64,000 nt of DNA from an uncultured Gemmatimonadales bacterium (GTDB lineage Bacteria > Gemmatimonadota > Gemmatimonadetes > Gemmatimonadales > Gemmatimonadaceae), in NCBI GenBank assembly GCA_963793305.1, contig CAWBZV010000002.1:544001-608000 (forward strand). Reading direction: 5' to 3'. The notes under the pieces are model-generated. The model was not told the origin of the DNA. It saw only the letters and a list, made by a program, of their open reading frames with translations, and made no database searches. Shown piece by piece: positions 22,561-33,499 of the stretch. The position numbers were made by a program, and so were the translations under genes. Numbering within the stretch: the stretch's first letter is position 1; every line of letters begins with the position of its first letter.

Positions 22561-22703
22561 GGCAGACGAAGGTGCCGATCGGACCGTCGAGCGGCAATGC
22601 CGAAGAAATGGGACGATATTCCCCCAACCCTGCCGAAGGCAGGCTCGCAACGCAACCGATAGCCCGAAGGGCCGAGTCCGAAGATGCAACCCCCAGGGGA
22701 GTC

Positions 22704-25700
22704 ATGACCGCCCAGCCCGACCGCGCCACTTACGGCCTTCGGCCCGACATTCTGTCGCAGTGGGAGACGCTCGCCCAGTCGCTCTCCAGCATCGCCCCCA
22801 CGGCGGCGCCGGCGATGATCATTCCCTTGGTGATCGCCGCCGCGGGACGGTCGGCGTGGGTGTCGTTCGTCGTCGCGACGATCGCCATGGCCCTCGTCGC
22901 CGCTCACGTCAACGTGTTCGCCCGCGACTCGGCTACGCCAGGGTCCCTGTACGCGTTCGTCCGCGGCGAATTCGGGTCATGGGTGGCGCTGCCGGCGGGT
23001 TGGGCGCTCCTCGTCGCCTATATCGGGACGGCCGCCGCGGTGACCGGCGGGATCATCCAGTATGCGCAGAATCTGGTCGGGATCGCTGGTACCGGCGTCG
23101 CGATCCTGCTGATCATCCTGTCGATTGGCCTGTCGGCCATGCTCGCCTATCGCAACGTGGAGCTGTCCACGCGATTCATGCTCTGGATCGAGTGCGCGTC
23201 GGTGGCGACGATCGTGCTCTTGTTCGTGATCCCGACGCGCGCGCATCCGTTGAGCTGGGATCCCACGCAATTCACGCGGTCGGTGTTCGCCGTCACGCCG
23301 GTCGGCGCCGGCCTCGTGCTCGCGACGTTCGCGTTCGTCGGGTTCGAGAGCGCCACCGCGCTCGGCGCCGAAGCGAAAGATCCATTGACGACCATCCCCC
23401 GCGCGGTCATGGGGACGGCGCTGATTTCTGGTGCGTTCTTCGTGTTCTCGACCTACGCCGAGGTCGACGCGGTCGGCTCGAAGGTCGATCTCCTGACGGG
23501 GACGCAAGCGCCACTGCAAGTCCTCGCGACCCTCAAGGGGCGATCGTGGGTGGGGCCGATCGTGTCGGTTGGCGCGATCATGAGCTTTTTTGCGTGCGCC
23601 ATGTCGTGCATTACGGCGGCCGCGCGCACGATGTTCCTCATGGGCGCGCAGAAGGTCTTGCCATCGCGGTTGGGACAGGTGCACGCACAACATCAGACGC
23701 CGTCCATGGCGGTGATCGTATCCAGCATCGCCGCCGCCGTTCCCGCCTTAGCCTTGGCCGCGCGACATGTCAGCGCGTTCGATCTGTACGGGTGGCTGGC
23801 CACGATCGCGACGTACGGATTCCTCGCGGCGTATGTGTTCGTGACGGTCGCCGCGCCGATATATGAATTGCGCCGACGCACGCTGACGGTGCCAAAGGCC
23901 GGCCTCGCGGTCGTGACCGTGGCGTTTCTCGTCTGGGCGTTCGTCGCCAGTCTGCCGCCGGCAACCTCCACCGGTCCCGAGCGATGGCTCGCGCCCATCT
24001 TCTTCGCGCTGATTGTGGCCGGCTGTGTGTATTGCATGGCACGCCGCCGCCTCATCGTTGCCGGCGCGATGATCGTGCTGTTTGCCACTCCCGCTCGTGC
24101 ACAATTCACGCGGGAGCGGAGCTGGCTCAAGATGCCCGATGGCGTTCGTCTGGCGGTCACATACTGGCGACCGACGGGAGCGAAAGACAAACTCCCCGTG
24201 CTGCTCGAGTATCTGCCGTATCGGAAAGAAGACTCGTTCTATCAGCGCGATTACCCACTCTACAGCTGGTTCGTACGCCATGGCTTCATCATGGCCAAGG
24301 TCGACATTCGAGGTACGGGATCGTCCGAGGGACATCTGCCGGACCGCGAGTACTCCGAGCAGGAGATGAAAGACGCCGACGTCATTATCGATCAGCTCAG
24401 CCGGCTGCCGGGGTCGAATGGCAACGTGGGCTTGTGGGGAATCTCCTGGGGCGGATTCAACGCCATCCAGATCGCCATGCGCCACCCACCGGCGCTCAAG
24501 GCCATCATATCAGTGGATGCCACGGACGACCTCTATCACGATGACATTCACCAGATCGACGGCGTGCTCCACATCGATCAGTACGCTCTCCAGATCGACC
24601 ACGAGAACGGCCTCCCCGCGCCGCCCGCGTACGCGATCGACTCGGCGTACTTTCACAATCGGTTCGATACATCACCATGGTTGCTCACCTATCTGCATCA
24701 TACAGTCGACGGACCATGGTGGCGCTGGAACTCGCTGCGTTTTCAGTACGACAAGCTGACGATTCCGTGCTTTCTCATAGGTGGTCTGCTGGACGGCTAC
24801 CGCGATGCCATCCCGCGCATGCTCGACAGTGTGCACGCACCGATCAAGGCGATCGTCGGGCCATGGAACCACACCTTTCCCGATGATGCCGTCCCGGGAC
24901 CCGCCATCGAGTGGCGCGGTCTCGCCGTCAAATGGTGGAAGCATTGGTTGGAGGGCGAGGCCAACGACATCATGGACGGACCGCGGCTCACCGTCTTTGT
25001 CCGCGACTCGGTGCCGCCGGACGTATCCCTCGCCATCAGTCCCGGGCATTGGCGCGGGGAAGACTGGCCGATTGCTCGCACGCAATGGCGCACGTGGTAC
25101 CCGAACCCCAGGCATGAGCTTGGCGAAGCAGTTGGAGCGCGAGATTTCGGCTGGTACGATTGGTTGGCTTATACCGCGGGCGTTGGCACGGCGGTTCCAG
25201 TCTGGTGGAATGATGCGACGGGCGACCAGGCGGCCGATGACGGACAGAGCTTGACCTATGACAGCAGGGAGCTGCGGGAGCCGGTCGAGATCATCGGTTT
25301 TCCGCGCGTGCGCTTGCAGGTTCGGCCCGCCGCCCCGATCGTCGATTGGACCGTGCGGCTCGAAGACGTCTTTCCCGATGGGCGCGTCGCGCTCGTGACC
25401 GGGGTGCTCCAGAGCGGCGCCCAATGGTCATCGCGCCTCGATCCGGCGCCACTCGCACCGGGCTTGCCGTATGTGATCAAGACGCCGCTGCACTTCACGA
25501 CGTGGACCTTCCGACCGGGACACAAGATCCGCCTGGCTATCGCGAACTCGCAGTTCCCAATGGCGTGGCCGACGCCGTACCCCACGACGACATCATTGGA
25601 AGTCAATGACGGCAGCACCACCCTCGACCTTCCGGTCGTCCCGTCAGCACCGAACGCACAGGTGCCGGTCTTTGCGGCGCCCCAGCCCCATGACCAGGCA

Positions 25701-26066
25701 CCGGATGCGCGAACGTTACAGGAGACGGGCTATCCCGGCGCCATCGTCACCCACAACGTCGTGGCAAAAACCACGGCTGTTGATTTTCTTACACGCTTCT
25801 CGTACCAGATCCTCGACCGCCGAATCGAGAACATCGAGAAGGAGCATTACGAGACACACGATGACGACCCGGCCCACTCGAGTTTCGTCGGCGACGAATC
25901 CCATCACATATGCCGCCCGAAGCGCTGCCTCGTGCTTCGCACCGGAATAGACGTGCAGTCGGATAGCACGACGTTGCGTGTTCGCGTAACCCGGCGACTC
26001 GAGGAGAACGGCCGGCTCGTGCGCACGAAGATCTGGACCGACACGATCCCGCGGGGGATCAACTAG
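22704..26066 (+). CDS. APC amino-acid permease fused to a CocE/NonD (S15) hydrolase
   Basis: GGGGAG ribosome-binding site. About 445 aa of APC permease (QSLSSIAPT, FVGFESA, PSMAV), then MPDGVRL, YLPYRK, DIRGTGSSEG, GISWGG, GPWNH and a PepX_C-like domain in one open frame. Confidence 0.88.
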   Translation: MTAQPDRATYGLRPDILSQWETLAQSLSSIAPTAAPAMIIPLVIAAAGRSAWVSFVVATIAMALVAAHVNVFARDSATPGSLYAFVRGEFGSWVALPAGWALLVAYIGTAAAVTGGIIQYAQNLVGIAGTGVAILLIILSIGLSAMLAYRNVELSTRFMLWIECASVATIVLLFVIPTRAHPLSWDPTQFTRSVFAVTPVGAGLVLATFAFVGFESATALGAEAKDPLTTIPRAVMGTALISGAFFVFSTYAEVDAVGSKVDLLTGTQAPLQVLATLKGRSWVGPIVSVGAIMSFFACAMSCITAAARTMFLMGAQKVLPSRLGQVHAQHQTPSMAVIVSSIAAAVPALALAARHVSAFDLYGWLATIATYGFLAAYVFVTVAAPIYELRRRTLTVPKAGLAVVTVAFLVWAFVASLPPATSTGPERWLAPIFFALIVAGCVYCMARRRLIVAGAMIVLFATPARAQFTRERSWLKMPDGVRLAVTYWRPTGAKDKLPVLLEYLPYRKEDSFYQRDYPLYSWFVRHGFIMAKVDIRGTGSSEGHLPDREYSEQEMKDADVIIDQLSRLPGSNGNVGLWGISWGGFNAIQIAMRHPPALKAIISVDATDDLYHDDIHQIDGVLHIDQYALQIDHENGLPAPPAYAIDSAYFHNRFDTSPWLLTYLHHTVDGPWWRWNSLRFQYDKLTIPCFLIGGLLDGYRDAIPRMLDSVHAPIKAIVGPWNHTFPDDAVPGPAIEWRGLAVKWWKHWLEGEANDIMDGPRLTVFVRDSVPPDVSLAISPGHWRGEDWPIARTQWRTWYPNPRHELGEAVGARDFGWYDWLAYTAGVGTAVPVWWNDATGDQAADDGQSLTYDSRELREPVEIIGFPRVRLQVRPAAPIVDWTVRLEDVFPDGRVALVTGVLQSGAQWSSRLDPAPLAPGLPYVIKTPLHFTTWTFRPGHKIRLAIANSQFPMAWPTPYPTTTSLEVNDGSTTLDLPVVPSAPNAQVPVFAAPQPHDQAPDARTLQETGYPGAIVTHNVVAKTTAVDFLTRFSYQILDRRIENIEKEHYETHDDDPAHSSFVGDESHHICRPKRCLVLRTGIDVQSDSTTLRVRVTRRLEENGRLVRTKIWTDTIPRGIN

Positions 26067-27622
26067 TGGCATTCTGTCCGCCGCCGTGCGAACCAGCCAT
26101 CGCGAACACGGCGGTGTCCCGCGAACCCCAAGGCGCCCGCTCCACTGGCTGGATCCTCGCCGCCACGATCCTCGGCTCGAGCCTCGCGTTCATCGACGGC
26201 ACGGTCGTCAGCATTGTCCTGCCGGTCATGCAGCGCGAGATGCACACGACGATCGTCAACGCGCAGTGGGTCGTCGAGATTTACCTCCTCTTCCTCTCGT
26301 CGCTGATCCTCGTCGGCGGCGCGGTCGGCGACCGCTGGGGCCGCGAGCGCGTGTTCACCGGCGGCATCATCGCGTTCGGCCTGGCATCCATCGGGTGCGC
26401 GCTCGCGCCGAACATCAACTGGCTCATCGCGTGGCGAGCCCTGCAAGGCATTGCCGCCGCATTTCTCATCCCCGGCAGTCTCGCGATCCTCGGCGCCGCG
26501 TTCTCGCCCGGCGAACGAGGCCAAGCCGTCGGCACGTGGTCGGCGGCGACCGCCATCGTCACGGCCGCCGGTCCAGTCCTCGGCGGTTGGCTCGTCGAGC
26601 ACACCTCGTGGCGATGGATCTTCGCGCTCAATGTGCCGCTGGCCGCCGCGGTCGTCGCCATCATGGTGTTCGAGGTGCCATTCTCCGCGCCCGCGAAAGT
26701 CACCCGCTCGCTCGATTGGACCGGCGCCGCGCTCATTACCGCCGGGTTGGGCGGCATCGTCTTCGGGCTTATCGAATCACCGCACTACGGTCTCGGCAGC
26801 CTGAGAGTCGTATTGAGCCTGATCGTCGGCGTCGCACTGGTCGGCGCGTTCATCGTCGTCGAGGACAGGGTCATCCGACCGCTGGTGCCGCTCATGCTCT
26901 TTCGCTCGCGAGCGTTCAGCGGCGCGAATCTCATCACCCTGTTGCTCTACGCCGCACTGGGCGGCGCGCTCTTCTTTTTGCCCTTTGATTTGATCCAGAT
27001 TCATCATTACACGGCCACCGCCGCGGGCGCGGCGCTGTTGCCGTTCGTCATTATCGTGGCGCTCCTGTCACGCACCGCGGGCGAGATGGCTGAACGGGTC
27101 GGCATCACGCTCCCCCTCACGCTCGGCCCGCTCATCGCGGCCGTCGGGATCGCGACGTTTGCGCTGCCGGGCGCGGGCGGCGGCTACTTCACGACGTTCT
27201 TTCCCGGGATGGTGCTCCTCGGCCTGGGGATGGGGATCACGGTCGCGCCTCTTACGACGGCGGTGCTCTCATCCGTCGATGACGAGTTCGAAGGCGTCGC
27301 CTCGGGAGTGAACAACGCCGTCGCGCGCCTTGGCGGCCTCCTCGTCATCGGCGTCCTCGGGATCATCATGGTCCAGCGCTTCTCGACGCAATTGGATGCG
27401 GGGCTCGCCCATGCGGGCGCTCCCACGCAGGTCCGCCAGGCGTTGGGCGCTCAAGCATTGCAGCTGGCGGCGATCACGCCGCCGCCAGCCTACGAGCACC
27501 TCGTCACGGCAGCGGCCGTCTCGGCATTTCGGGGCGCGATGATCGTGTCGGCGGTGCTCGCACTGGCTGCCGCTGGGGTGGGGGCCACCACTTTGCCTCC
27601 GCGGCGCAGCCGCCGCCGGTAA
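26066..27622 (+). CDS. DHA2-type MFS transporter
   Basis: ILGSSLAFIDGTVV, GDRWGR, GPVLGGWL, ASGVNNAVAR. Confidence 0.92.
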   Translation: MAFCPPPCEPAIANTAVSREPQGARSTGWILAATILGSSLAFIDGTVVSIVLPVMQREMHTTIVNAQWVVEIYLLFLSSLILVGGAVGDRWGRERVFTGGIIAFGLASIGCALAPNINWLIAWRALQGIAAAFLIPGSLAILGAAFSPGERGQAVGTWSAATAIVTAAGPVLGGWLVEHTSWRWIFALNVPLAAAVVAIMVFEVPFSAPAKVTRSLDWTGAALITAGLGGIVFGLIESPHYGLGSLRVVLSLIVGVALVGAFIVVEDRVIRPLVPLMLFRSRAFSGANLITLLLYAALGGALFFLPFDLIQIHHYTATAAGAALLPFVIIVALLSRTAGEMAERVGITLPLTLGPLIAAVGIATFALPGAGGGYFTTFFPGMVLLGLGMGITVAPLTTAVLSSVDDEFEGVASGVNNAVARLGGLLVIGVLGIIMVQRFSTQLDAGLAHAGAPTQVRQALGAQALQLAAITPPPAYEHLVTAAAVSAFRGAMIVSAVLALAAAGVGATTLPPRRSRRR

Positions 27623-27702
27623 AAGGTCAGCCTCCGTCCTCGTCAGAGGACGAAAGGACACCCTTAAGCTCCGCTTAACAGCAGAGATTCGCGGTCGTCT
27701 CC

Positions 27703-27717
27703 TGGAACAGTGGTTGC
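27703..27717 (+). promoter_or_regulatory. Putative sigma54 (-24/-12) promoter
   Basis: TGGAAC-AGTGG-TTGC has exact GG-N10-GC spacing and lies about 30 nt upstream of an ATG with an AGGAGG ribosome-binding site. Confidence 0.55.
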
Positions 27718-27746
27718 CTTAACTACGGCTTTCAGGAGGTGACATA

Positions 27747-28427
27747 ATGCATCAACGAATGTGGGTCGCCGCACTGGGCGCGATGGCGCTGTCGGCGTCC
27801 GTCGCGAGTGTAGCGAGTGCCCAGTATCGTGTGCGATACGGGTACAATTACGACGCGTTCGACAATGAAGCAGTGCACATCGGCATCTCGGGAGGCGCCG
27901 CCGTCCCGACTGGTCCGTACGCCGAACGATTCAATCCGGGTTGGAATGTCGATGGGAACCTGGCGATTCCGCTCGATCGTCGCTCACCGATCTGGCTCCA
28001 GTTCGATGTTGGGTACTCGCGCTTCGGCGTCAATTCACAGACGCTGCAAGACTTCAATGTGAATACCGGATTCAGCAGCATGCTCTCCGGTACCGCCAAT
28101 CTCGTGATTGGCCTGACCAATGATCCGCGCGCCCGCGTGGTGCCGTATCTCATCGGCGGCGGCGGTGTGTATTCGCGGTATGTCGAGCTCGATAACTACC
28201 AGAACTCGGGCGTGGCCTGCGATCCGTTCTTTGGATTCTGTCAGAGCTACAATCAGGCCGTGCCCGTCCTGACACGGACCGAGACCGTCGGCGGTTTGGA
28301 TGGCGGGGCCGGACTGCGCTTCAAGATGCGACGGGTGAATTTCTACCTTGAGGCGCGGTACGAAACAGCTTTCACCAACACCACGAATACGGCGTTCGTT
28401 CCCATCAGATTCGGCATTGAATTCTGA
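27747..28427 (+). CDS. Outer-membrane beta-barrel protein
   Basis: Signal peptide ASAQ, amphipathic strands, PYLIGGGG, C-terminal Phe (FGIEF). Confidence 0.88.
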   Translation: MHQRMWVAALGAMALSASVASVASAQYRVRYGYNYDAFDNEAVHIGISGGAAVPTGPYAERFNPGWNVDGNLAIPLDRRSPIWLQFDVGYSRFGVNSQTLQDFNVNTGFSSMLSGTANLVIGLTNDPRARVVPYLIGGGGVYSRYVELDNYQNSGVACDPFFGFCQSYNQAVPVLTRTETVGGLDGGAGLRFKMRRVNFYLEARYETAFTNTTNTAFVPIRFGIEF

Positions 28428-28444
28428 TAGCACCTCGATAGGTT
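28417..28444 (+). promoter_or_regulatory. Putative sigma70 promoter for the leaderless leader-peptide transcript
   Basis: TTGAAT (28417-22)-N16-TAGGTT (28439-44), 7 nt before ATG 28452. Confidence 0.55.
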
Positions 28445-28451
28445 GTATAGC

Positions 28452-28505
28452 ATGACGCTGCGCTGTTGTTGTCTCGCCCCCCGCATCCCAGAGACTCAGG
28501 CGTAG
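28452..28505 (+). CDS. Cys-rich attenuator leader peptide MTLRCCCLAPRIPETQA
   Basis: ATG ACG CTG CGC TGT TGT TGT ... GCG TAG: three tandem TGT codons upstream of a terminator and a sulfite/nitrite reductase. Confidence 0.8.
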   Translation: MTLRCCCLAPRIPETQA

Positions 28506-28526
28506 CGCGCCCCGTGTACACCCGTG

Positions 28527-28558
28527 CCCGCCGGAGTTTTCTCCGGCGGGTTTTTTTT
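28527..28558 (+). terminator. Intrinsic terminator (attenuator)
   Basis: Perfect 10-bp stem CCCGCCGGAG-TTTT-CTCCGGCGGG followed by T8, ending directly at the reductase ATG. Confidence 0.9.
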
Positions 28559-30160
28559 ATGCCTGAAACGACTGAAACACCGACACAGCGCATCGAGCGC
28601 ATCAAACGCGAGAAAGCGTCCTGGTCGATCCTGGACGATATTCGTCGCTACTCCACGCTCGGCTACGACGCCATTCCGGACGACGACCTGAACGTCCGGT
28701 TCCGTGCGTGGGGCCTGTATACGCAGGGCGATGGCCTTGGCGTGCATGGCGAAGCCACGCGCTTTTTTATGATGCGCGTGCGGACGCCCAACGGCATCGT
28801 GACGTCGGCGATGGCGCGTACGATCGCCGATCTCTCCGATCGCTATGCGCGCGGTTCGCTCGACATCACGAATCGACAGAACTTCCAGCTGCATTGGCTT
28901 CGCATCGAGGACATCCCGACGGTGTGGGATGCTCTCGCGGCTGTCGGTTGGACGAGCATGGGCGCATGCGGCGACAACACGCGTACGGTCACGGGTTGTC
29001 CGCTCGCCGGCGTCGACGCCGCGGAGATCGCCGATGCCTCGCCGATTGCCGTGCAGATCGACCAGCGGATGAATGGCAATCCGCTGTACGCGAACTTTCC
29101 GCGCAAATTCAAAATCTCGGTCACGGGCTGCGCGCATTGGTGCACATATCCCGAGATCAACGACATTGGATTGACGGCCGTGCGACGCGGCGACGAGATC
29201 GGGTTCAGCTTGCGTGTCGGCGGCGGTCTTTCGACCCGCCCCCGACTCGGCGATCGACTCAACGTCTTCGTGCCGTGGGACGCCGTGCCCGATGTCGTCG
29301 ACGCCGTCGCCGCCATCTTCCGCGACTCCGACGAGTTGCGCGTGCAGCGCGCGAAAGCGCGTATGAAATTCTTATTTCTCACGCATGGCTGGACGCCCGA
29401 TCGATTTCTGGTCGAGCTCACCCATCGGCTAGGCTACGCGCTCAGCCCCGCGGTCCCAGAAGTGCCGCCGGACGGCTCATTCCGCGATCACGTCGGGGTG
29501 CATCCGGAAAAGAGTGGGGCATCATTCTACGCGGGATTCACGGTCGCGTCGGGTCGCATCTCTCCGGATGCCCTTCGTTCTCTCGCCTCGCTCGCGGACG
29601 AATATGGCACTGGATCGCTGCGCACCACCGCGATGCAGAACGTGGTCGTGCTCGGCATCCCGGCGGAGCGGCTCGGCGCATTTCAACGGGCGGCTGCGCG
29701 GAGCGCGGCGCCACCACTGGAAGGGTCGCCGTTCCGTCGTGGGATACTCGCGTGCACCGGTTCCGAGTATTGCAAGCTCGCCGTGGCCGAGACGAAGCGG
29801 TTCAGCCTGGATCTCATACCGGAGCTCGAGCGCCGACTCCCGGGATTTCAGTCGCACGTGAAGATTTTTGTCACGGGCTGTCCGAACGCGTGCGGCCAAC
29901 ATTGGATAGCGGATATTGGGCTGCAGGGCGCCGCGGACGGCTTTGACATATTCATCGGTGGCGGGCTCGGCGCGACGCCGGGATTCGCCGACCGGATCGG
30001 AGTCCGCGTCGCGGCAGCCGAGACGGCGGATGCATTGGAGACGCTGTTCCGCGAGTACCTGGGCGGCCGTGCAGGCGACGAGACGTTCCGAGCATGGACC
30101 GCACGCGTCGGCCCAGATTACGTCAAGACCGCGCTCGCGATGGCTCGATCACAACCATGA
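28559..30160 (+). CDS. Siroheme-[4Fe-4S] sulfite/nitrite reductase (CysI/Sir-like)
   Basis: FMMRVR, TNRQNFQLH, FPRKFKISVTGC, ACTGSEYC and TGCPNACG cluster ligands. Sulfite specificity is inferred from the Cys leader. Confidence 0.9.
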   Translation: MPETTETPTQRIERIKREKASWSILDDIRRYSTLGYDAIPDDDLNVRFRAWGLYTQGDGLGVHGEATRFFMMRVRTPNGIVTSAMARTIADLSDRYARGSLDITNRQNFQLHWLRIEDIPTVWDALAAVGWTSMGACGDNTRTVTGCPLAGVDAAEIADASPIAVQIDQRMNGNPLYANFPRKFKISVTGCAHWCTYPEINDIGLTAVRRGDEIGFSLRVGGGLSTRPRLGDRLNVFVPWDAVPDVVDAVAAIFRDSDELRVQRAKARMKFLFLTHGWTPDRFLVELTHRLGYALSPAVPEVPPDGSFRDHVGVHPEKSGASFYAGFTVASGRISPDALRSLASLADEYGTGSLRTTAMQNVVVLGIPAERLGAFQRAAARSAAPPLEGSPFRRGILACTGSEYCKLAVAETKRFSLDLIPELERRLPGFQSHVKIFVTGCPNACGQHWIADIGLQGAADGFDIFIGGGLGATPGFADRIGVRVAAAETADALETLFREYLGGRAGDETFRAWTARVGPDYVKTALAMARSQP

Positions 30161-30692
30161 TGAACCGCAGGGGGCCTTTCCCCACGTTCGCGTACCGATG
30201 TGGCCGATCGGCGCGAAAAACCAGAGAGTCCCCCCGCGCCATGCTATGCGTGTCGGCGCCGAGCGTCAGCGTGAGACTCCCGGCGAGGGCGTAGAGCATC
30301 TCGCGTGACCCGGGTGGGTGCGCGGCGCCATCGTATCCATCGCCTGGCGCGATGCGCCAATCCCATACCTCGGACTGATCCGATCCGATCAGCAGCGTCG
30401 CGACGCTGCCCGGAAGCCCGTGCCACAACTCGGCGGCGTCGGCCGCGCGCACGACGCGCACGGGCGGCGACTCGTCGACCTCGACCAGCCGGGGGACGGA
30501 GACCCCGAGCGCATCGGCAATGCGGCACAGGGTCGCAATGCTCGGGTTGGTCCGCGCTTGCTCGATTTGCACGAGCATGCCTTTGCTGACGCCCGAGCGT
30601 GTCGCCAGCGTGTCGAGCGTCCACGACCGCCGCGTGCGCAGCGCGTGCACCGTGCGCGCGATCGCCGCCGCGATGGCGTCAGGGTCGGTCAT
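30123..30692 (-). CDS. XRE-family HTH regulator with cupin sensor
   Basis: WTLDTLATRSGVSKGMLVQIEQARTNPSIATL and cupin motifs (HPPGSRE, DRPHRYAN). Confidence 0.92.
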   Translation of the reverse strand: MTDPDAIAAAIARTVHALRTRRSWTLDTLATRSGVSKGMLVQIEQARTNPSIATLCRIADALGVSVPRLVEVDESPPVRVVRAADAAELWHGLPGSVATLLIGSDQSEVWDWRIAPGDGYDGAAHPPGSREMLYALAGSLTLTLGADTHSMARGDSLVFRADRPHRYANVGKGPLRFIMVVIEPSRARS

Positions 30693-30698
30693 CGAGCC

Positions 30699-30731
30699 TC
30701 AGTATACTGACCATAAATGTCAGTATATATT
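30699..30731. promoter_or_regulatory. Putative operator(s) between the divergent regulator and EamA genes
   Basis: Perfect palindrome TCAGTATACTGA (30699-30710). TCAGTATA repeats 21 bp later. Overlaps TATACT and TATATT -10-like hexamers. Confidence 0.7.
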
Positions 30732-30737
30732 ACCGCC

Positions 30738-31571
30738 ATGGCCCCACTGCTCGCCATACTCGCCTCGATCTGCTACGGCGGCGCGGACTTCCTCGGCGGG
30801 CTCGCCAGCCGAAAGAGCTCGGCGCTCGCGGTCGCCGCCGTCTCACAGTTCGTGGGTCTCGCGCCCCTCGCGATCGCGATGCTCGTGGCGGGCCCGAGTA
30901 CGCCGAGCACCGCCGACCTCGCGTGGGGCGCTGCCGCCGGCTTAGCGGGAGCCGCGGCGCTCGCCCTTTTTTTCAAGGCGCTCACGCTCGGACGCATGAG
31001 CGTGATGGCGCCCGTTGCTTCGGCGACGGGCGCCGCGGTCGCCGTGCTCATTGGCTTCGCTCTCGGCGAGCGACCCGGGCCCCTCGTGCTCGCCGGGTTC
31101 GCACTCGCGGTCGTGTCGATCGTGCTCGTCGCTCAAGACCGATCGGGCCCCGACGGGTCGACCGAGCGTGGCGTGCTCACCGCGCTCGCGTGCGGCATCG
31201 CGCTCGGCGCGTGGTACACGTGCTTGCACCCAACGTCGATCGCCGCCGGTCTCTGGCCACTGGTGATGGCCCGAGCGGTATCGCTGCCGCTCCTGGCTCT
31301 GGCGACCCGATTGAGGGGCCGGTCGCTGCGCCTCCCGAGAGACGTGATGGCTATCGCGCTGCCGTCGGGCACGCTCGACATCATCGCGAACGTCTGCTAT
31401 CTGATCGCCGTGCGACAGGGTATGCTGAGCGTCGTCGCGACGCTCGCCTCCCTCAACCCCATCGTGACCGTCGCCCTCGCCTGGTCGGTCCTGCACGAGC
31501 GCCTGCGCCCCGCCCAGTATCTCGGACTCGCCTTGGGCATCGCCGCGATGGCGATGATCTCATTGGGCTAG
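30738..31571 (+). CDS. EamA/DMT family transporter
   Basis: About 10 TM helices, YGGADFLGG, GRMSVMAP, LASLNP..T..LA...LHERL. Confidence 0.9.
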   Translation: MAPLLAILASICYGGADFLGGLASRKSSALAVAAVSQFVGLAPLAIAMLVAGPSTPSTADLAWGAAAGLAGAAALALFFKALTLGRMSVMAPVASATGAAVAVLIGFALGERPGPLVLAGFALAVVSIVLVAQDRSGPDGSTERGVLTALACGIALGAWYTCLHPTSIAAGLWPLVMARAVSLPLLALATRLRGRSLRLPRDVMAIALPSGTLDIIANVCYLIAVRQGMLSVVATLASLNPIVTVALAWSVLHERLRPAQYLGLALGIAAMAMISLG

Positions 31572-32530: not shown

Positions 32531-33499
32531 ATGACTGTCTCAGCCTTCCTGAAAGAGCACTTCCGGCACTTCAACGCCGCCGCCTTGATGGACGCCGCCG
32601 AGGGATATCGGCGGCACCTCGATTCCGGTGGCAGCATGCTCGTCACGTTGGCCGGCGCCATGAGCACGGCCGAGCTGGGGCGGTCCTTGGCGGAAATGAT
32701 CCGCAAGGGCAAGGTGCAGGGGATCGCCTGCACGGGGGCGAATCTCGAAGAAGACGTGTTCAACCTGGTCGCCCACAAACACTACACGCGCGTCCCGAAT
32801 TACCGCGATCTGACGCCCGCTGACGAGCAGAAGCTCCTCGAGCGGCACATGAACCGGGTCACGGACACGTGCATCCCGGAGGCCGAGGCGATGCGGCGGA
32901 TCGAGCGCGCGGTGCTCGAGGAATGGGTCAAAGCGGATCGCGAGGGCAAGCGCTATTTCCCGCACGAGTTCATGTATCGCATCCTGCGCAGCGGCGTGCT
33001 CAAGAGCGAGTACGAGATCGACCCGAAAGACTCGTGGCTGTTGGCTGCCGCCGAGCGGGACCTGCCGATGTTCGTTCCCGGTTGGGAGGATTCGACGCTG
33101 GGCAACATGTACGCGGGCCACTGTATCTCCGGCGACGTGTGCAACGTGCACACAGTGCGCACGGGCATCGAGTACATGATCAAGTTGGCGGACTGGTATC
33201 AGACAACGTCCGCTAAGTCCTCGATCGGTTTCTTCCAGATCGGCGGCGGCATCGCGGGCGATTTTCCCATCTGCGTCGTGCCCATGCTGCACCAAGATCT
33301 GCAGCGGCCCGAGGTTCCACTCTGGGGCTACTTCTGCCAGATCTCGGATTCCACGACTTCGTACGGATCGTACTCCGGGGCTGTCCCCAACGAGAAGATC
33401 ACCTGGGGCAAGCTCGGCGTGGACACGCCCAAGTTCATCATCGAGTCCGACGCCTCGATCGTCGCTCCCCTCGTCTTCGCCCTCGTACTCGACTGGTAG
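32531..33499 (+). CDS. Deoxyhypusine synthase-like protein (probable homospermidine synthase)
   Basis: TLAGAMS, TGANLEED, IGGGIAGDF, SYSGAVPNEKITWGK with the catalytic Lys, ESDASI. Confidence 0.9.
   Translation: MTVSAFLKEHFRHFNAAALMDAAEGYRRHLDSGGSMLVTLAGAMSTAELGRSLAEMIRKGKVQGIACTGANLEEDVFNLVAHKHYTRVPNYRDLTPADEQKLLERHMNRVTDTCIPEAEAMRRIERAVLEEWVKADREGKRYFPHEFMYRILRSGVLKSEYEIDPKDSWLLAAAERDLPMFVPGWEDSTLGNMYAGHCISGDVCNVHTVRTGIEYMIKLADWYQTTSAKSSIGFFQIGGGIAGDFPICVVPMLHQDLQRPEVPLWGYFCQISDSTTSYGSYSGAVPNEKITWGKLGVDTPKFIIESDASIVAPLVFALVLDW

Follow-up and report, generated by a model that had tools for sequence, protein, structure and literature searches.

An element of about 140 nucleotides (nt) in the genome of an uncultured Gemmatimonadales bacterium (family Gemmatimonadaceae) is very probably a leader-peptide transcription attenuator, which would sense the supply of cysteinyl-tRNA through three tandem TGT codons and control read-through into the gene of a siroheme/4Fe-4S reductase of the NirA/Sir type (rough probability 0.8). 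The element lies in a window of 64 kb (NCBI GenBank assembly GCA_963793305.1, contig CAWBZV010000002.1, positions 544,001 to 608,000 of the forward strand), and coordinates are positions within this window unless another contig is named. The genome under study, G000, comprises 5.7 Mb in 26 contigs with 64.9% G+C and is 92% complete; G001-G005 are its congeners. A first-pass annotation of the same DNA had proposed a trp/his-type attenuator that senses cysteine (Cys), and this proposal is supported by the co-transcriptional folding of the leader, by the conservation of leader and reductase, by the recurrence of Cys leaders in three phyla and by five other leader attenuators in the same genome. 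The parts of the element and the gene behind it are the following (sORF, short open reading frame; MFE, minimum free energy).

28417-28444, + strand: promoter-like element, TTGAAT (28417-28422), 16-nt spacer, TAGGTT (28439-28444)
28452-28505, + strand: leader sORF MTLRCCCLAPRIPETQA, 17 codons plus stop codon TAG (28503-28505)
28464-28472, + strand: three tandem Cys codons TGT TGT TGT, codons 5-7, the proposed sensing site
28456-28475 with 28491-28507, + strand: protector (1:2) hairpin, in the MFE structure of the free RNA
28493-28509 with 28523-28538, + strand: antiterminator (2:3), extendable to 28491 and 28540
28526-28536 with 28541-28551, + strand: intrinsic terminator (3:4) from a consensus scan, loop TTTT, T8 at 28551-28558
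28559-30160, + strand: reductase of 533 amino acids, siroheme/4Fe-4S NirA/Sir type, NIR_SIR and NIR_SIR_ferr domains

Architecture and folding of the leader

The sORF with its three tandem TGT codons is present base for base as the first-pass annotation had described it, and the alternative reading frames of the leader are without a start codon. The TGT codons are located within the 5' strand of the protector, where their Us are paired (U-G and U-A). TGT is the minor Cys codon of the genome (27% of the Cys codons in long open reading frames, ORFs), in which one gene for tRNA-Cys(GCA) was found, and wobble decoding of TGT may also sharpen the ribosome stall. The antiterminator spans the leader stop codon together with 13 nt of the terminator's 5' arm region. 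The terminator, which had been described with a stem of 10 bp, has 11 pairs in the consensus scan, nine of them G-C, and is the single strong terminator in the region 27600-30800 (28526-28551); its T8 run directly adjoins the reductase ATG (28559), as had been claimed. An N-terminal extension of the reductase from TTG 28466 was rejected as a candidate, as it would traverse the terminator and its frame is broken by indels of 10 and 34 nt in loci L015 and L016. No relevant Rfam match was found in 26000-31000 at E up to 10. Short ORFs with tandem Cys codons are numerous in G000 (2184 with at least two and 93 with at least three), and among the 93 with at least three only the reductase leader precedes a terminator.

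The MFE structure of 28452-28561 consists of exactly the protector and the terminator that had been claimed (-46.2 kcal/mol, z -4.66), and none of 200 shuffled sequences folds as well. Taken alone, the terminator has a free energy of -24.4 kcal/mol, while the protector (z -2.29) and the antiterminator (z -2.12) are each equalled by five of 200 shuffles. The antiterminator (-17.9 kcal/mol) likewise agrees with its earlier description, since 14 of its 14 proposed pairs are canonical or G-U and the leader stop codon is covered. Nascent RNA with no ribosome on it first adopts the protector (-21.8 kcal/mol) and, once the 3' arm of the terminator is made, the terminator. When a stalled ribosome was modelled by masking 28452-28484, the MFE structure of nascent RNA ending at 28538, 28540 and 28545 was the antiterminator (-17.5, -19.4 and -19.8 kcal/mol, respectively). 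Because the leader stop codon lies within the 5' strand of the antiterminator, a ribosome that reaches the stop would be expected to block antitermination, to judge from the footprint sizes of bacterial ribosomes. With its tandem Cys codons, its intrinsic terminator and its mutually exclusive protector and antiterminator, the element thus has the predicted build of a leader-peptide attenuator, the helix logic having been followed in silico.

In the proposed mechanism, a ribosome translating the leader while cysteinyl-tRNA is plentiful would reach the TAG at 28503 and cover 28491-28518, or would release the RNA so that the protector re-forms. The antiterminator strand would be unavailable either way, and the terminator would form and stop transcription at about 28558. 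When cysteinyl-tRNA is scarce, the ribosome would stall at 28464-28472, covering approximately 28452-28485 and melting the protector, and 28491-28509 would pair with 28523-28540 before the 3' arm of the terminator is made, so that RNA polymerase would enter the reductase gene. If no ribosome is loaded, the protector would form and transcription would terminate.

Conservation of the leader and recurrence of cysteine leaders

A search of 41 genomes from the order returned high-scoring matches to the reductase from each of the six members of the genus and from a single further genus of the family, and the leader is present in five of the six. In G002 and in the genome of the other genus, G013, the reductase stands directly behind another gene and the leader was not seen. 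The leader peptide is identical or near-identical in eight congener or metagenome loci, and the three tandem TGT codons are kept in 8/8 genus-level homologues; homologous peptides from genome and metagenome collections include MTLRCCCLAPRILETQA, MTLRCCCLASRNPETQA and MTLRCCCLAPRIRETQA. In a comparison of nucleotide identity with five distinct congener or metagenome homologues, the first of which stands for two loci, the leader is better conserved than the reductase coding sequence (CDS) in every case.

Closest homologue (two loci): leader 100%, reductase CDS 92%
Second-closest homologue: leader 96%, reductase CDS 90%
Third-closest homologue: leader 94%, reductase CDS 84%
Fourth homologue: leader 92%, reductase CDS 81%
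Most distant homologue: leader 87%, reductase CDS 77%

This very high conservation includes synonymous positions, and in the 60 nt 5' of the sORF identity drops to 49-60% in the three more distant loci. Apart from two stem changes, substitutions are confined to the spacer and to the loops of protector and terminator. Both stem substitutions, found in L101, preserve pairing (G-U to A-U and C-G to U-G), and residues 10-13 of the peptide vary (APRIPE, ASRNPE, APRILE, APRIRE) exactly where the RNA forms a loop, a substitution pattern that fits an RNA under structural constraint. The single-contig genome G003 extends the comparison to a reductase that is only about 70-74% identical and has a different upstream gene. 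Its leader is still present, with a sORF of 16-17 codons (MMPRRCCPVPCPRRRPA, Cys pattern CC..C..C), and the motif GCGTAGCGCGC around the leader stop codon, the terminator and the three-helix logic are all retained. Because G003 keeps the leader behind a different upstream gene, the element belongs to the reductase and not to the outer-membrane-protein gene that precedes it in G000. The MTLRCCC... leader appears as a separate, genus-restricted sequence family, distinct from the Gemmatimonadota family with the CGGCCGCTC terminator.

The first-pass annotation had proposed to look for conserved Cys runs upstream of orthologous reductases, and these were found. The starting set consisted of 160 loci that encode relatives of the reductase, half of them (80) taken from genomes and half (80) from metagenomes. 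It was reduced to 141 by requiring a distinct upstream region of 200 nt or more and an alignment that begins no later than residue 40. Each remaining locus was then scored by the highest Cys density of any sORF 6-50 codons long in the 350 nt before the gene, the antisense strand serving as control. At least three Cys in a window of eight residues were present at 53/141 loci on the sense strand and 5/141 on the antisense strand, and at least four at 26/141 and 0/141, respectively. By phylum labels taken from the record titles, positive loci are distributed as follows.

Gemmatimonadota: 16/45
Acidobacteriota: 18/21
Dormibacterota: 2/2
Bacillota-labelled: 0/4
Methylomirabilota: 0/2
Armatimonadota: 0/1
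Unlabelled: 1/4
Metagenome contigs: 16/62

Loci in which no leader was seen often have another gene directly upstream, and for those the count is a lower bound. The positive leaders are dissimilar in sequence (e.g., MPCCAVCCCMCNHTNPSLRPGPKQRA, MSACHSCCCQCCCCCCMCASTGAGRLLT and MNRFSCCPCCSLLIAARATC); what they have in common is an ATG, a Cys-codon run within a frame that can be translated and a stop codon ahead of the terminator. A hairpin followed by a U-run lies between sORF and gene in 39 of the 53 positive loci. An automated measure of whether the terminator arm is paired upstream, applied to these 53 loci, was discarded for everything except terminator presence: it did not separate free from stalled leaders, because a truncated RNA always pairs its lone 5' arm with something, and at L016 it chose the wrong hairpin, the real terminator being located in a separate fold.

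Codon runs that match a pathway are also found elsewhere in the genome. G000 contains 90 strict terminators, 22 of which stand immediately before a long same-strand ORF. In six of these 22 cases the terminator is preceded by a leader ORF in which the codon run corresponds to the pathway that the next gene serves.

Contig C3, 303407-303556: His leader HHHHAHRH, before hisG
Contig C3, 1375055-1375190: Thr leader TITTTTMTT, before homoserine dehydrogenase
Contig C3, 64302-64443: Ile/Leu/Val leader LVLSLVLVLLI, before ilvD
Contig C3, 467459-467597, minus strand: aromatic leader YWFF, before DAHP synthase
Contig C3, approximately 1346347-1346477: second Cys leader FCC, MRRETVTFCCATANLRPRRHT, before a rhodanese-family sulfurtransferase
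Window 28452-28505, + strand: CCC leader, before the NirA/Sir-type reductase

The identities of hisG, homoserine dehydrogenase, ilvD and DAHP synthase are above the NCBIfam cut-offs, whereas the match of the rhodanese to a sulfurtransferase, with 124 bits, falls below it. The His, Thr, Ile/Leu/Val and aromatic leaders match no Rfam family, and the T-run of the His leader terminator adjoins the ATG of hisG just as that of the Cys leader adjoins the reductase. These matching runs provide an internal positive control for the predicted regulatory role of the Cys run. The second Cys leader has the form TTGACA-N18-TAGTCT-5 nt-ATG with a CGGCCGCTC/GAGCGGCC terminator and lies 12 nt before the rhodanese gene; the terminator and an 'RP' (GCGGCC) motif match the leader family found before reductases of other Gemmatimonadota. 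A regular expression for the signature of this CGGCCGCTC family has a single match in G000, which is the rhodanese leader, and no Cys leader was seen before the three cysK-like genes of the genome.

Transcript start, rival explanations and known systems

The TAGGTT hexamer ends 7 nt before the ATG of the sORF, and it is plausible that the AUG stands at or near the 5' end of the mRNA, which would make the sORF leaderless. Congeners with diverged spacers retain TTGCGY-N17-CAGGTT-7 nt-ATG, and in five of the six G000 leader ORFs the distance from the end of a -35/-10-like pair to the ATG is 5-9 nt (12 nt in the His leader). The conserved block AGGTTGTA could alternatively be a weak ribosome-binding site. 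In G000, 389 Shine-Dalgarno (SD)-like tetramers lie at a distance of 9-12 nt from the first possible start of long ORFs, against about 205 per 4-nt bin and with noisy starts; this genome-wide enrichment is weak, and the absence of a SD sequence at the leader is therefore uninformative. The reductase ATG at 28559 is not preceded by a SD sequence either. Both the reductase and hisG start directly after a U-run in G000. Initiation independent of SD sequences is suggested to be common in this genome.

The gene upstream of the leader (27747-28427, + strand) encodes a protein of 226 amino acids with a weak match to OMP_b-brl_2 (E 0.0027, below the cut-off), an N-terminal hydrophobic stretch read by eye as a signal peptide and the C-terminus ...RFGIEF; its product is probably a small outer-membrane beta-barrel. 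The stop codon of this gene (TGA 28425-28427) falls within the promoter spacer. Six contigs from soil metatranscriptomes, one from each of six studies, cross 28427-28451 from the upstream gene into the sORF. They are 90-99% identical to the window and hence come from relatives, which may be active in soils, and they cover the region from about 28100 to 28464, 28479, 28496, 28512, 28516 and 28516. Since these contigs bridge the upstream gene and the sORF, some leader RNA is not leaderless, unless the libraries carry DNA. The stop at 28516, upstream of the hairpin, is shared by two contigs from two studies and has no loose end, which is a weak hint; a DNA contig spans 28320-28691. Starts, ends and expression levels cannot be read from such RNA contigs, and the lack of RNA cover in 28517-28699 is given no weight. 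Of the leaderless start claimed in the first-pass annotation, the hexamers and the 7-nt geometry therefore stand, being kept in congeners, whereas the 5'-terminal AUG is, given the RNA that arrives from upstream, no more than plausible.

This RNA is one of several observations that weigh against the attenuator reading. The promoter hexamers are weak, and a scan with an E. coli-type sigma-70 consensus does not call the TTGAAT/TAGGTT pair. The hairpin may also act as the terminator of the upstream gene. A sORF with three tandem Cys codons is, with 93 instances in G000, not rare by itself, and each alternative helix is singly just about two standard deviations better than shuffled sequences. The stems are almost invariant within the genus, because of which there is no true, statistically supported covariation, so that the covarying stems for which the first-pass annotation had suggested a search were not found alongside the Cys runs. 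Finally, folding with and without a ribosome gives the antiterminator in the nascent snapshots, as that annotation anticipated, but not in the full-length leader, which keeps the terminator in its MFE structure when the ribosome is masked. Attenuators commonly work kinetically and not at thermodynamic equilibrium; given the persistence of the terminator in the masked full-length RNA, antitermination must here be kinetic as well, like that of classical attenuators.

The RNA contigs and the position of the hairpin lead to the simplest rival explanation, namely that hairpin and T8 run are merely the terminator of the upstream gene, that chance accounts for the CCC sORF and the alternative pairings and that the reductase is transcribed otherwise. 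The hairpin indeed shares the strand of the upstream gene and lies about 100 nt past its stop codon without an intervening terminator, the six RNA contigs join the 3' end of that gene to the leader, two of them stop at 28516 while the DNA contig continues (again a weak hint), and CCC sORFs are common by chance. However, G003 has kept both leader and terminator at its reductase although the gene before them is a different one, the leader exceeds the CDS in conservation while the sequence upstream decays, and unrelated Cys-rich leaders occur at 53/141 orthologous regions against 5/141 in the control. Moreover, the T-run adjoins the reductase ATG, so that reductase transcripts must cross the terminator. 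Both roles can coexist, and we consider an explanation by the upstream terminator alone very improbable. About equally improbable is an element that senses cysteine through the sORF and whose output is translational or based on Rho and polarity, as in the polycysteine sORFs of mycobacteria. A precedent is Ms5788A of Mycobacterium smegmatis, which acts on translation initiation, a transcriptional reporter being insensitive to cysteine (bioRxiv 10.1101/834739), and a hairpin adjoining the reductase AUG could affect initiation. In the G000 leader, however, the G+C-rich stem of 11 pairs and its T8 tail form a canonical intrinsic terminator, there is no SD sequence before the reductase ATG to be sequestered, the Cys codons are paired with the 3' portion of their own sORF and not with the initiation region of the reductase, and the same arrangement of a terminator at the ATG is found at the His leader before hisG. 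The least probable of the three, with only a slim chance, is that the element acts without translation of the sORF, as an RNA switch that binds a ligand or a protein, or that the CCC peptide is itself the functional product. The very high nucleotide conservation, synonymous positions included, would agree with this, but no Rfam family is matched at E up to 10, sequence-unrelated leader families share only the Cys run, the ATG and the stop codon before the terminator, peptide residues 10-13 vary exactly where the RNA is a loop, and the analogous leaders of G000 carry His, Thr, Leu/Val and aromatic runs.

The attenuator reading has its closest model in the leaders of enterobacterial amino-acid operons, trpL, hisL, thrL, leuL, pheL and the ilv leaders, which are the classical attenuators. 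These leader-peptide attenuators are summarised in the introduction of bioRxiv 10.1101/834739. Like the trpL/hisL class, the element combines a short ORF, tandem regulatory codons and mutually exclusive protector, antiterminator and terminator helices, with the leader stop codon in the antiterminator strand and an intrinsic terminator before the first biosynthetic gene. It differs from that class in that cysteine would be sensed, in its Gemmatimonadota host, in lacking any sequence or Rfam relationship, and in its sORF without a SD sequence, its -10-like hexamer 7 nt upstream and its T-run adjoining the ATG.

Cysteine leaders have been described in a few cases. Brewer et al. (2021; PMC8632094) predicted uORFC-8-2, an upstream ORF (uORF) of Rhodobacterales with tandem Cys codons followed by an intrinsic terminator before cysS. 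It resembles the present element in that attenuation by the ribosome is predicted, the tandem Cys codons are part of a stem and an intrinsic terminator comes behind them. It differs in controlling the cysteinyl-tRNA synthetase of Alphaproteobacteria and not a sulfur-reduction enzyme, in having two Cys codons at positions 14-15 instead of three at positions 5-7, and in sequence, to which no relationship was seen; the leader studied here has no relevant Rfam match and the gene behind it is a reductase and not cysS. The polycysteine leaderless sORFs of mycobacteria act on translation according to Canestrari et al. (2020; bioRxiv 10.1101/834739), who add that uORF attenuation for cysteine was not known by then. 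They share with the G000 leader the consecutive Cys codons in a sORF before sulfur or cysteine genes, a sORF that in G000 may be leaderless too, and a mycobacterial operon that includes the thiosulfate sulfurtransferase gene cysA2 parallels the G000 rhodanese gene with its Cys leader. In the mycobacterial sORFs the Cys tract pairs with the SD region and there is no terminator, whereas here a terminator is present, no SD sequence is sequestered and the partner strand of the Cys codons is 28491-28507. For Actinobacteria, leader peptides with Cys that lack a terminator were reported by Seliverstov et al. (2005; PMC1262725). The accessible portions of Naville and Gautheret (2010; PMC2965389) do not treat cysteine, and those of a 2026 paper on attenuation in Mycobacterium tuberculosis (PMC13236596) cite the mycobacterial case only. 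A full-text literature search that included few subscription journals returned no description of a Cys leader attenuator before a sulfite reductase and none of any leader-peptide attenuator in Gemmatimonadota. The first-pass annotation had regarded the intrinsic-terminator form as undescribed in this lineage; that holds for lineage and gene, but an intrinsic terminator behind a Cys uORF had been predicted before cysS (PMC8632094). The element is best classified as a new sequence family with a known, here predicted, mechanism, from a phylum for which the search returned no published case.

A broader reading, which we regard as tentative and rather doubtful as a whole, would join these strands into a cysteine 'attenuon' for the scavenging of reduced and half-reduced sulfur. 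In it, an orphan sulfite reductase and a rhodanese would each stand behind their own, unrelated Cys leader, in genomes that lack sulfate-activation genes and an APS/PAPS reductase, so that the system would not serve sulfate assimilation. As the mRNA would be leaderless, only transcripts from the leader's own promoter would load a ribosome, and read-through from upstream would always terminate. One hairpin would thereby serve as the terminator of the upstream gene and as the Cys-gated entry to the reductase. Leaderless leader peptides would, moreover, be a general design in Gemmatimonadota, for Cys, Thr, Ile/Leu/Val and aromatic amino acids.

The reductase and its sulfur source

The reductase matches both Pfam domains, NIR_SIR and NIR_SIR_ferr, in two stretches each. 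Its best solved relative is 1zj8, the 'NirA' of M. tuberculosis (295 bits), and plant nitrite reductases reach at most 245 bits. We take 1zj8 to be in fact a sulfite reductase. Against sulfite as substrate stands the best NCBIfam match, ferredoxin-nitrite reductase, with 352 bits against a cut-off of 594; the NirA family (305/523) and ferredoxin sulfite reductase (157/731) also score below their cut-offs. The surroundings of the gene were surveyed in 51 orthologous loci in which another gene starts within 100 nt 3' of the reductase, with the following next genes.

Siroheme-synthesis: 21/51
PALP (cysteine-synthase-type): 15/51
HemD: 3/51
TauE: 2/51
Other: 3/51
Unassigned: 7/51

This gene context favours sulfite as the substrate, and the reductase would reduce sulfite to sulfide for the synthesis of cysteine.

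The first-pass annotation had gone further and inferred that stalling at the Cys codons induces sulfate assimilation, a claim that the gene content of the genus does not bear out. PAPS_reduct proteins (CysH/CysD, PF01507) were found neither in G000 nor in four of its five congeners, the single-contig G003 included; ATP sulfurylase and TauD were not found in G000, and neither SsuD (alkanesulfonate monooxygenase) nor CysE is above the cut-off in this 92% complete genome. CysK is present, as is one gene of the sulfite-reductase type. It weighs on the other side that G000 is incomplete and that genes not found could sit outside the assembled sequence. Since neither genes for sulfate activation nor one for a reductase of adenosine 5'-phosphosulfate (APS) or 3'-phosphoadenosine 5'-phosphosulfate (PAPS) turned up, the enzyme would draw its sulfite from compounds other than sulfate, e.g., thiosulfate. 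Scavenging of sulfite or thiosulfate therefore fits better than sulfate assimilation, and a rhodanese and a sulfite reductase both under Cys control suggest the use of thiosulfate or sulfite.

G005 alone among the six genomes of the genus has PAPS_reduct genes, two in one cluster, and its PAPS_reduct proteins have no tblastn match in G000. To judge from their motifs, these two genes are presumably CysD- and CysH-like. In this genome (L182:257-391, contig C25), a Cys-rich sORF, MHVCRCSCACADTLSRPEAAIP, followed by a CGGCCGCTC...GAGCGGCC terminator, precedes a membrane-protein gene and then the cluster with the two PAPS_reduct-family genes. The G005 leader belongs to the terminator/'RP' family that is widespread before the reductases of other Gemmatimonadota and includes the rhodanese leader of G000.

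In G000 the reductase is monocistronic. The end of the regulated unit is marked by a convergent gene for a regulator with an XRE-type helix-turn-helix and a cupin domain (30123-30692, - strand), which overlaps the 3' end of the reductase gene. Two further genes of the window are worth recording. An ORF of 1164 amino acids (22572-26066, + strand) carries an amino-acid permease domain at residues 61-474 and X-Pro dipeptidyl-peptidase S15 and PepX_C domains at 523-1010, an unusual transporter-peptidase fusion if the ORF is real, and a homologue of deoxyhypusine synthase (32531-33499, + strand; Pfam DS, E 3e-39) is encoded in this bacterium.

In textbooks, cysteine figures among the amino acids for which classical attenuation is not known, and the published cases comprise the mycobacterial sORFs, which act on translation, and a single motif predicted before cysS of Rhodobacterales. 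Cys leaders followed by intrinsic terminators appear, from the sequences compared here, to be a widespread and unpublished form of control of sulfur reduction in three soil phyla, namely Gemmatimonadota, Acidobacteriota and Dormibacterota. In annotation, such a leader would count as functional evidence for sulfite as the substrate of 'NirA-like' reductases. For the physiology of the genus, a sulfite reductase is kept under cysteine control in bacteria that seem unable to reduce sulfate, which turns their sulfur source into a concrete question.

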